Below, piece by piece: positions 43,075 to 46,312 of a stretch of DNA of 64,000 bases. The stretch is taken from NCBI RefSeq assembly GCF_024298765.1, contig NZ_CP101211.1. One strand, written 5' to 3'. The DNA is from Escherichia coli. Its GTDB lineage: Bacteria > Pseudomonadota > Gammaproteobacteria > Enterobacterales > Enterobacteriaceae. Every line of letters starts with the position of its first letter. Position 1 is the first letter of the stretch. The translations under genes were made by a program, and so were the position numbers. A model generated the notes under the pieces. It had not been told where the DNA came from. It was given only the letters and a program-made list of their open reading frames with translations, and did no database searches.

Positions 43075-43377
43075 ACTCGTTGATTACGACAATGGGAGTG
43101 AGTGTCGAACCCCTTGAGTAAGGATACTTGGTAAATATACAGCCCCGGGGATTCTCTTCCTTCAACCGGGGATGACAACGGGAGTGAGTCCGGCAACTCA
43201 CACCTGTTGTCACTTCTCTGACATATCGTCATACGAGCTTACTCAAGCGCATCCACAAAGATGGGATCGTTTTGAATCTAAACTGGTACTGGTTAGCCAG
43301 TCACTTGCATCTACTCCCCCGTCGATATTTAAGTGACAATTGTAGTGATCTGCAATACTGGTGTCTCAGAAACACTG
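43075..43377. repeat. iteron-like palindrome repeats (left part of array split by IS)
   Basis: units such as ATGACAACGGGAGTGAGT...ACTCACACCTGTTGTCAC. Confidence 0.6.
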
Positions 43378-43421
43378 TGTTGTGGTCAAGTTTTTTTGGA
43401 CACGCCGATCAGATGGTAGGG

Positions 43422-44300
43422 TTATGCACAGGCGGGCAACTGGGCGGCAGGGCTGGCCAGCGTTTCGTACTGTGCGGGTGATCGGTAGCCAAGTTTTGAA
43501 TGCAATCGGGTACTGTTATAAAAGTTAACGATGTAGTCGGTGATGTCTTGTTTGGCTTCTGTATGGTTGGCATACCGAGTCTGCCAGACACGCTCCATTT
43601 TCAAATTCAGAAAGAACCGCTCCATCACGGCATTGTCCCAGCAATTACCCTTGCGGCTCATGCTGAGTACCAGACCATGGTTTTCAAGTAATTGCCGGTG
43701 TTCAGCACTGGCATATTGACTGCCCCGGTCCGAATGAACCAATAAACCCGGTGCCGGTTGGCGAACCGAAATAGCCATGCTCAACGCATCGCACACCAGC
43801 TGTGCAGGCATGGTCGGTGCCATGGACCAACCCACGATGCGACGTGAATACAGATCCAGCACAGCGGCCAGATATAGCCAACCGCTGTCGGTCCGAATGT
43901 ACGTCACATCGCACACCCAGGCCGTATTGGGTGCTTCAGGCTCAAACTGACGGTTGAGCACGTTCTCTGCCACCGGCAAATGGTGTTTGCTATCGGTGGT
44001 ATGAGCGAACTTGCGACGCCAACAGGCCTTGAGTCCACAGGCTTTCATCAAGGTACGACAGCGATGACGTCCAACATCATGGCCCTGGGCACGCAGGGCT
44101 GCACTCAAACGACGACTGCCATAGGTGCGACCACTGGCAAGAAAAACCGCCTGAGCATGCACGCTGTCCTGGCAAATAGGTTTGGGTGTATTGACTCTGC
44201 GACGCGCTGCGTAGTAACCAGAGCGACTGATGTCCAACGCCTGACAGACCTGCTTGATCGGGGCCTGCTTCGCTAACTCAGTGACAACATCGTGGATCAC
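43422..44300 (-). CDS. IS3-family transposase OrfB
   Basis: DDE integrase-type sequence (WVCDVTYI...HSDRGSQY...NAVMERFF). Confidence 0.9.
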
Positions 44301-44662
44301 TTTATTTCCCGTGCGAAGAAGGCCGAAGCTTTTTTTAATAATTCATTGTCTGATTTTAGTCGCCTGACTTCGGCTTCCAGTTCTCGAATACGTTGCTGCT
44401 CAGCCGTTAACGGTTTACCAATCCCCGGCCTGCCGGCTGACTCGTCATCCAGTTGGTGTACCCAGCGTCGGACCACACTTTCGGTCAGCTTCATTTCGCG
44501 GCAGACTTGGCTGACGCTGACGCCTTGCTCGCGCACCATGCGCGCCACCTGTAACTTGAACGCTGGATCAAAGGTTCGGCGATTCTTGGTTGTGTCGGTT
44601 GTCTTGTCGGTCATCTCTTCATGTTCCTTGTCGGGGGGAAAACACCCGATCAAAGTGTCCAT
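44297..44662 (-). CDS. IS3-family OrfA (HTH)
   Basis: typical OrfA with leucine zipper-like C-terminus. Confidence 0.85.
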
Positions 44663-44680
44663 TTAAATTTGACCACAACA

Positions 44681-46312
44681 CTGACGACGGTAGAGACTCA
44701 ATACCCTAACCCCTGACAACAGAAGTGAGCTTAGAGGTGTTACGCTGCTGTCACCTAATGCTTGGGAATTGCCTGACTCACAACCATTGTCATCCGGAGC
44801 TACTGATTAACGTTGAACCGCTGGACTTTAATGACAGTGGTAGTGATGGATAGGCTCATTTCCATTGTCGTCATTTTATCGGACAAGCCTCTTCGTCCTA
44901 CAGGTTTAAGCTGACAATGGTAGTGATTGGATGATCTCACTACTGTTGTCACTCAGTTCTTTGAGCGGACCCTTCCCTCGGTTGGTCGGCATTAACAACG
45001 GTAGTGACTCGATTGGCTCACTGCCATTGTCATCGTGTAAATGACGTACCTTATCAGCTCAGCTGAAAGCAATGACAACGGTAGTGACTCTAATTGCTCA
45101 CTGCCATTGTCGTCGTGTCTATTGAGAGCCTTATCAGTGCACCTGAAAAGCAATGACAACGGTAGTGACTCTAATTGCTCACTGCCATTGTCGTCGTGTC
45201 TATTGAGAGCCTTATCAGTGCACCTGAAAAGCAATGACAACGGTAGTGATTCTAATGGCTCACTACCGTTGTCACCGTGTGTATTGAGAGGATGGTCCAC
45301 TTAACTGGACGTATATGACAATGGTAGTGACTTTAATAGCTCACTACCATTGTCGGTGTGTGAATTGAGAGGATGAGCAGCTCAGCTGTACGTCCATGAC
45401 AATGGTAATGACTTAATGAGCTCACTACCGTTGTCACCCTGTTAATTAAGAGGCTCATCTGCTCTTCTGGAAGGCTATGACAACGGAAGTGACTTGCTGG
45501 GCTCACTGCCATTGTCGCCGTATGAATTGAGAGGATCATCCGCTCTTCTGGATGGCAATGACAACGGTAATGACTTAATAGGCTCACTACCATTGTCACC
45601 CTGTGAATTGAGAGGATGATCTGCTTAACCAGACGGCCATGACAACGGTAGTGACTTTCTGGGCTCAATACCGTTGTCACCCTGTGAGTTAAGAGGTTGA
45701 CCCGCTCTACTGGACGGCCATGACAACGGTAGTCACTTTCTGGGCTCACTACCGTTGTCACCCTGTGAGTTAAGAGGTTGACCCGCTCTACTGGACGGCC
45801 ATGACAACGGTAGTCACTTTCTGGGCTCACTACCGTTGTCGCCATATAGAATGAGAGGAGCATCAGCTCAACTGAACGGCAATGACTACAGTAATGAGCT
45901 GGATGAAGCATAACCATTGACATCTGGCCCAACCGGAAGCCGTATTCGCCAATCCAATCGAGATTCACAATGGCCGTGACTCGCCGCATTAAGTTCCGGT
46001 GTCCTCCCAAAGCTGAACGCACACTCGGAGGACAATGACAATGCCAGTAAGGTACACATCATTACCATTGTCACTATAGCTACCAGAGAAGCCGGGATTT
46101 GAATGTCGATGGTAGTGAGTGGGTCAACTCACTGCCATTGTCACCCCGTTACGATATTTTCCGTTGGATGTACTGGCCAATGAAGTAAAGCGTAGAAACC
46201 GGGTGTTAACAGGTGACTCAGGAGAAAGCGTTGAATTTCGCAATCTCGATCTACATAGGGTGGTAGAGAACAATGACAACGGTAATGACTTTTGACTCAT
46301 TACCGTTGACGT
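44681..46312. repeat. tandem array of about 20 x 81-bp repeats, each with an inverted pair of iteron-like 15-mers (TGACAACGGTAGTGA / TCACTACCGTTGTCA)
   Basis: exact 81-bp periodicity visible (e.g. 45069, 45150, 45231); adjacent units identical or near-identical. Confidence 0.85.

Follow-up and report, generated by a model that had tools for sequence, protein, structure and literature searches.

Convergent iteron pairs downstream of repHI2 form a probable copy-control locus in an IncHI2 plasmid

The 64,000-nt stretch of Escherichia coli DNA analyzed here (assembly GCF_024298765.1, contig NZ_CP101211.1; hereafter "the window") is part of an IncHI2 plasmid. Its repA gene is repHI2, and the locus is the RepHI2A replicon. 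Downstream of repHI2 there is a non-coding field built around an array of 81-bp tandem repeats, and each repeat carries a convergent pair of the iteron that is also found, as direct repeats, upstream of the gene. The repeats themselves are already known: they are the "long iterons" described for this replicon in plasmids of the R478 type. We propose that the field is probably a RepHI2-binding copy-control and incompatibility locus that acts by titration and handcuffing, as does incA of P1. The position of the array, the identity of its sites, and the precedent of extra-iteron control loci such as P1 incA and F incC all lead us to infer that RepHI2 binds the field, and that the array is the negative-control and incompatibility locus of RepHI2A.

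A 5.6-kb region of the window is 100% identical to many IncHI2 plasmids, in which the rep gene is annotated as repHI2. This gene (46386..47474, minus strand; 100% identity to the annotated repHI2) encodes the 362-amino-acid RepHI2A initiator, a protein of the RepFIB/P1 type that is predicted to bind iterons. RepHI2 is 100% or 99.4% identical across IncHI2 records, with R478 having the 99.4% allele, and is 48–56% identical to RepFIB and P1-type RepA proteins. A preliminary description of the window, made from the sequence alone, had called the gene RepFIB-like, and an amino-acid identity of ~50% bears this out. Sequence searches of Pfam, NCBIfam and PDB with RepHI2 returned zero matches. In R478 (NC_005211), the reference IncHI2 plasmid, an Ig-like gene, a 2,077-bp spacer and repHI2 are found in the identical order, with repHI2 at 260 kb on the 275-kb circle. 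The passages on R478 in PMC8490738 cite Page 2001 and Gilmour 2004 for "twelve 80-81 bp iterons" ~500 bp from repHI2. In the window, ~500 bp separate the end of the last well-conserved unit from the repA stop codon (46386), matching the published description of R478. By sequence, the R478 repeats are beyond the stop codon of repHI2, whereas PMC8490738 puts them next to the start codon. Iterons of up to 76 bp are mentioned for R478 in a review of iteron plasmids (PMC4980987).

Once an insertion sequence (IS) and one copy of the CTG that it duplicated are deleted, the non-coding field 3ʹ of repA is 2,159 bp long. Tandem Repeats Finder (TRF) reports an array at 44995-45897 with a period of 81, 11.2 copies and 81% matches, and also a higher-order period of 243 bp. 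From TRF, the unit table, the haplotypes and an alignment of the units (A1), the regular array spans 44832..45963 and consists of 14 units that keep to an 80/81-bp register and start at 44832, 44912, 44993, 45073, 45154, 45235, 45316, 45397, 45478, 45559, 45640, 45721, 45802 and 45883. About 12 of the 14 units are well conserved; the first two and the last are degenerate. The 4th and 5th units (45073 and 45154) are identical, representing a recent duplicate. The preliminary description was right to place an 81-bp tandem array downstream of repA but too generous in counting "about 20 units of exactly 81 bp". Each unit consists of TGACAACGGTAGTGA, a 10-bp spacer, TCACTACCGTTGTCA and a 41-bp linker, as read from the sequence and the unit table. 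Hence, the inverted 15-mer pair noted earlier in each unit is a genuine feature: two convergent iterons of 15 bp each, with starts 25 bp apart.

Are the arms of the repeat unit the same site as the iterons at the origin? The 15-mer family has 51 matches with ≤3 mismatches in the window, as compared with 1.2 expected by chance, and every match with ≤2 mismatches is within 43173-48457. We built a weight matrix solely from the ten direct iterons on the origin side. This matrix finds 41 matches in the downstream field, 39 of them scoring 14.8–23 bits, and 12 matches upstream of repA; the rest of the 64 kb contains 14 weak matches, as against ~11 per shuffle. The array arms score 17–23 bits, which is the same range as the origin sites, indicating that they are complete copies of the replicon's own iteron. 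Thus, there are ~39 strong sites 3ʹ of repA and ten direct iterons at the origin, a ratio of about four; most of the downstream sites are in convergent pairs with starts 25 bp apart. In an alignment of 18 distinct units, the invariant columns are mostly in the arms, in two blocks, TGACAA and a GTAGTGA-like block. These blocks are about one helical turn apart, a spacing from which we infer contact by a monomer with two DNA-binding domains. An AF2 (AlphaFold 2) model of RepHI2 (five-sequence alignment; mean pLDDT [predicted local distance difference test] 54, low confidence) has its best fold matches with RctB, which ranks at the top, RepE, a WH1 Rep domain and TrfA, and these modelled matches would fit an iteron initiator with two winged helices.

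Degenerate, irregularly spaced sites flank the regular array on both sides, at 43087-44792 and 45965-46311. The distal end (43087..43348), which is severed by the IS, includes sites at 43087(+) and 43334(+) and a pair at 43173(+)/43198(-), with ≤3 mismatches and scores of 15.5–19.9 bits on the origin-iteron matrix. Between the IS and the regular array (44682..44831) there are sites at 44682(+), 44714(+) and 44778(-), scoring 18.3–18.7 bits. The end closest to repA (45965..46311) has three convergent pairs, at 46036/46059, 46104/46129 and 46274/46297, identified from 15-mer matches and the matrix. The last of these pairs also registers as a weak terminator-like hairpin (46308-46277), 75 bp past the repA stop codon.

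The probable origin and repA control region (47500..48216, minus strand) is on the other side of the gene, and is marked by iterons, promoter-like hexamers, a GATC cluster, DnaA-box-like 9-mers and 33% GC. Its direct iterons have the core of the array sites and a 21-bp period, and form two groups of five, one proximal (47694-47792) and one distal (48117-48216). The preliminary description had already assigned them to the same 15-mer family as the array, as our matrix confirms. GC content is lowest, at 33%, in both groups of direct iterons, as compared with 44–57% in the array. Five of the window's 15 DnaA-box-like 9-mers cluster at 47568-48003. GATC density at 47500-47850 is 25.7 per kb (nine sites in 350 bp, ~7-fold that of the window), as compared with 3.6 per kb for the window and 2.7 for the array; the GC and GATC content of the array are average. 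By analogy with P1 oriR and Vibrio ori2, the GATC cluster around the proximal iterons and the repA promoter suggests Dam/SeqA control of the origin. Promoter-like hexamers are found within the proximal iterons and just before repA, and their position inside the iterons would be consistent with autoregulation. Together, the DnaA-box-like, GATC and AT-rich features and the promoter indicate that the origin and an autoregulated promoter are upstream of repA, and that the array is a separate element.

An alternative explanation is that the array belongs to the origin or is required as a positive element for initiation, which is the sense in which PMC8490738 uses the word "iterons". Where it discusses R478, that secondary source calls the units the replicon's iterons and states that cloning suggested functional activity; moreover, the array sites match the origin iterons. 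However, the array is past the repA stop codon and has no AT-rich stretch, DnaA boxes or GATC cluster, all of which are upstream of repA. Its sites are inverted pairs, whereas at the origin, both here and in related replicons, the iterons are repeated directly every 21 bp. Furthermore, unit number varies between 11 and 14, and a 1.3-kb IS is tolerated in the field. We therefore consider a positive role in initiation to be unlikely.

What would be the functional significance of a copy-control field with so many initiator sites? RepHI2 monomers bound to the field would be withdrawn from the origin (titration), and field-bound RepHI2 would pair with RepHI2-bound origin iterons on the same plasmid or a sister plasmid (handcuffing), with handcuffing expected to be the weightier of the two. 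Handcuffing would block re-initiation, and the outcome would be that a plasmid of 200–400 kb is held at one or two copies. Control of this kind by extra initiator sites, including those of Vibrio ori2-inc, has been reviewed (PMC6090056). A RepA-titrating copy-control locus was one of the readings offered in the preliminary description, and it would fit the arrangement seen here, with arms that score like origin iterons in an array outside the origin.

Several observations weigh against copy control by titration and handcuffing, or are left unexplained by it. Neither process accounts for the need for ~39 sites, or for a convergent pair conserved at a fixed offset of 25 bp. The units also share a well-conserved stretch of linker, TTGAGAGG, although recent common descent may be the sole cause. 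The structure model of RepHI2 is of low confidence. Lastly, the functional result of the primary R478 papers is second-hand here, coming from the statement in the R478 passages of PMC8490738 that cloning "suggested functional activity".

A more distant relative is informative with respect to pair geometry. A Citrobacter plasmid with a RepA 86–88% identical to RepHI2 has the same 15-mer, with two upstream groups of five iterons at an equal distance from the start codon. Its downstream field is 1.5 kb long and non-coding, and contains ~33 sites, including nine convergent pairs offset by 24–26 bp. Instead of a regular 81-bp array it has just a 145-bp repeat in 2.1 copies, the consensus unit of which, when inspected, has a linker with no resemblance to that of IncHI2. 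Thus, to judge from these sequences, site number and pair geometry are kept across this distance in RepA, but the unit itself is not. One conceivable, if speculative, extension of copy control is that the functional module is the convergent pair at a fixed offset of ~25 bp rather than the single iteron, such that ~15–20 head-to-head RepHI2 modules assemble a large nucleoprotein hub. We raise this idea because the ~25-bp geometry is kept in IncHI2 plasmids and in the relative while the linker shows no resemblance. If it were true, the hub might go beyond P1-type handcuffing, for example by pairing plasmids, setting their very low copy number or coupling the two IncHI2 replicons. As far as the accessible literature shows, the paired module has not been dissected experimentally.

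The preliminary description considered the array to be unusual, and allowed that it might be an assembly artefact. On the contrary, the region is carried by ~1,126 plasmid records, including R478, and is in one piece in 1,029 of them. By the test that the preliminary description set for itself, its claim of an unusual array thus fails. We compared unit haplotypes for nine plasmids, and drew a larger spread sample across the whole ranking. The base order, with 13 units, is found in two plasmids (L003 and L005). The window has 14 units, due to duplication of the 4th; L002 also has 14, due to an independent duplication of the 11th; and L007 and L008 have 12, having lost the 11th. R478, L004 and L006 have 13 diverged orthologous units. 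In the spread sample, unit number judged from the span is 11 in one record, 12 in 23 records and 13 in 29 records, and one sampled record combines the IS with 13 units. Hence, the duplication in the window lineage either postdates insertion of the IS or was later lost in that record. The array is found in every IncHI2 record sampled, with a range of 11–14 units. It is a fixed feature of the plasmid backbone, and the length of the array drifts by whole units within a narrow range, as unequal recombination adds or removes 81-bp units. The presence of the array in relatives, with whole-unit drift, shows that it is not an assembly artefact.

Such turnover raises the possibility that the regular array is largely a neutral satellite, in which a two-iteron unit has been amplified by slippage or unequal crossover and the high number of units has no function of its own. 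Neighbouring units are identical or nearly so, single-unit gains and losses have occurred independently, substitutions in orthologous units hit arms and linkers alike, and the relative with 86–88% RepA identity lacks a regular array. However, a functionless satellite does not readily explain a range as narrow as 11–14 units with an array in every IncHI2 record sampled, or the concentration of invariant columns in the arms. Moreover, the divergent relative keeps ~33 sites without tandem regularity, pointing to selection on site number. For these reasons, we think that a largely neutral regular array is quite improbable.

The repeats could also act at the level of a product, either as a structured RNA in which every unit forms a hairpin or as a repetitive protein from an open frame of 214–268 codons. 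A hairpin with a stem of 15 bp could form in each unit, and every lineage examined retains the open frame on the repA strand. Nonetheless, the variable positions of the arms are unpaired in 6–7 of the 18 units, and shuffle controls were not exceeded. Changes at these positions on one side are independent of those on the other, and no covariation is seen among the 18 units, so the arms behave as two protein-binding sites rather than as a selected hairpin. Covariation in the small linker palindrome TCAGCTCAGCTGA is marginal and unconvincing in the 18 distinct units. There was no Rfam match for an RNA product, and promoter-like sites were not enriched. With respect to a protein, the open frame differs from that of R478 by 4 synonymous and 26 non-synonymous codons, codon third positions are the least changed, and translation gives Cys/His-rich junk, in line with the earlier opinion that the long open frames through the repeats are spurious. 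Since a period of 81 is exactly 27 codons, the frame is likely to be open by chance. An RNA or protein product is thus hardly credible.

The IS is ISKpn18, a 1,303-bp element of the IS3 family at 43378..44680 on the minus strand, assigned from the annotation of 100% identical records and with its ends and inverted repeats checked. From the list of open reading frames (ORFs), it contains orfA (44297..44662, minus strand) and the overlapping orfB (43422..44300, minus strand). The terminal inverted repeats are imperfect, with both ends starting TGTTGTGGTCAA. In its inverted repeats, which start with TG, its pair of overlapping transposase ORFs and its target-site duplication of 3 bp, the element conforms to the IS3 family. 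The duplicated CTG is read directly from the sequence at 43375..43377 on the left and 44681..44683 on the right, where it begins an intact iteron site, TGACGACGGTAGAGA, at 44682. Removing ISKpn18 and one CTG restores an empty site, AAACACTGACGACGG, that is identical in R478 and three other relatives. The preliminary description was correct about the IS3-family element and its CTG duplication but not about its location: rather than interrupting the regular array, ISKpn18 lies within the degenerate distal flank, 151 bp short of the first in-register unit, where it severs four outlying sites. At least 70 plasmid records carry this insertion, from Salmonella, E. coli, E. albertii, Enterobacter, Klebsiella and Shigella, and it is therefore compatible with plasmid maintenance and spread. 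ISKpn18 is a tolerated, neutral passenger.

A further possibility is that the array is a partition centromere, similar to sopC or parS, that is bound by ParB, ParR or an orphan ParB-like protein and functions in segregation. Like sopC of F (12 x 43 bp), it consists of tandem units that each contain an inverted repeat. In addition, the window has three orphan ParB-like ORFs (phrog_1033; E-values 7e-25 to 3e-28 and 2e-21) on the minus strand at 5063..6247, 58095..59258 and 62469..63524, none with an adjacent ParA, which are probably the "ParB-like proteins" to which the preliminary description referred; those at 58095..59258 and 62469..63524 are hypothetical proteins in RefSeq. However, sopC directly follows sopAB and binds SopB, whereas the IncHI2 array follows repA, its repeated motif is the Rep iteron, and by annotation there is no parA/parB pair beside it or in the window. 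In R478, parAB (15.5–17.7 kb) and parMR/parM with an adjacent gene (20.8–22.5 kb) are ~30 kb from repHI2, and tandem arrays of 249-bp units that are unrelated to the iteron are found directly upstream of parA. The linker, which is the only room in the unit for the site of a second protein, shows no resemblance in the relative with 86–88% RepA identity. A centromere is thus very unlikely, and we set aside the preliminary suggestion of one. Outside the replicon, iteron 15-mers are absent from the 108 kb of R478 that we examined, including the surroundings of the par operons. The 249-bp units form two arrays at 12516-15095 of R478 (L016:516-3095), with 4.1 and 4.5 copies and 78–87% matches, and these are a candidate partition-site region or other regulatory array of IncHI2 plasmids. 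Two other ORFs that we considered as ParB candidates, 20735..23119 and 26303..27553, lack a ParB domain and instead contain PAPS-reductase and methylase domains. We also looked for a Tus/Ter fork trap, and found no Ter-like site above chance in the window; R478 encodes a Tus homologue at 55875-56855 (L016:43875-44855).

The array came to light with the description of the R478 replicon, and has been the target of PCR (polymerase chain reaction) typing of IncHI2 plasmids for about two decades. In the standard replicon-typing scheme, the target is listed as "iterons", with a product of 644 bp (table in PMC3936901). Both HI2 primers have exact matches in R478, 647 bp apart as compared with the published 644 bp. 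An exact forward-primer match is found at 46203-46227(-) in the window. For the reverse primer, there is no exact match; its best site, at 45743-45764(+), is in the right arm of a unit and has one mismatch, and four further units have two mismatches (all sites within 45257-45764). The site with one mismatch would give a 485-bp product. Because the sites of the reverse primer are in the repeat unit itself, the length of the amplicon can vary from lineage to lineage; in that of the window, the product may depart from 644 bp or form a ladder. To what was known, our analysis adds that the "long iteron" is a convergent pair of complete iterons, that the field has about four times as many sites as the origin, that its length drifts between 11 and 14 units, that a widely spread lineage tolerates an IS in the field, and that the reverse typing primer is inside the unit. 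IncHI2 plasmids are major carriers of mcr, extended-spectrum beta-lactamase (ESBL) and carbapenemase genes, which gives the determinants of their copy number and incompatibility practical weight.

The surroundings of the replicon have some further features. An isolated inverted pair of a variant iteron, TGACCATGGTAGTGA and TCACTACCATGGTCC with a 6-bp spacer, is found at 48443..48478 from the sequence and 15-mer matches. It is at the outer edge of the replicon, 227 bp beyond the distal iterons and directly past the stop codon of the gene for an 818-amino-acid Ig-like protein. R478 has a site with ≤2 mismatches from the iteron core at the equivalent position, and the relative with 86–88% RepA identity is without one; the pair may serve as a terminator or as a site for a RepA dimer. 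Three paralogous large Ig-like/DUF4165 genes (805–818 amino acids) are located around the replicon, at 32557..34974 (minus strand), 40500..42920 (plus strand) and 48582..51038 (minus strand). Two of them flank it directly, and the arrangement in R478 is alike. Transposase genes of the IS5 family and, with tnpB, of the IS66 family are ~4–6 kb beyond the replicon (52163..53131 and 53448..54983, from the annotation of an identical record). Positions 30,900-60,500 of the window are 100% identical to NZ_CP037959.1, and the first ~31 kb, as tested, are not colinear with it; hence, the source plasmid differs from NZ_CP037959.1 in upstream IS or accessory content.

How does the proposed copy-control field compare with known systems? 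The closest is the RepHI2A replicon of R478, an orthologous locus with the same flanking Ig-like genes and the same convergent pair in 81-bp units; R478 differs in having 13 in-register units (12 in the literature), which are diverged orthologues, whereas the window has 14 units and ISKpn18. The Acinetobacter megaplasmid pALWED1.1 is also a large conjugative plasmid, with ten repeats of 83–84 bp several hundred bp from rep, but these are upstream of the gene and, as PMC8490738 itself reports, there is no sequence similarity. The RepFIB plasmid pSLT has ~6–7 iterons just 3ʹ of repA, including two inverted pairs that abut and have the opposite relative orientation. In P1, the nine sites of incA lower copy number by handcuffing. 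P1, RepFIB and IncHI2 plasmids thus have related initiators and extra iterons directly 3ʹ of repA, outside the origin, some of which are inverted. The IncHI2 field differs from those of P1 and pSLT in scale, with ~39 sites in 2.2 kb, and in that convergent pairs with a 10-bp spacer have been homogenized into an 81-bp tandem unit. Finally, ori2-inc of Vibrio cholerae chromosome 2 has sites of two classes and is linked to Dam methylation, ParB2 and crtS, whereas we see a single class of iteron, from sequence alone. Nonetheless, ori2-inc is alike in having many extra initiator sites (RctB 12-mers and 39-mers) beside a minimal origin, where they restrain initiation.

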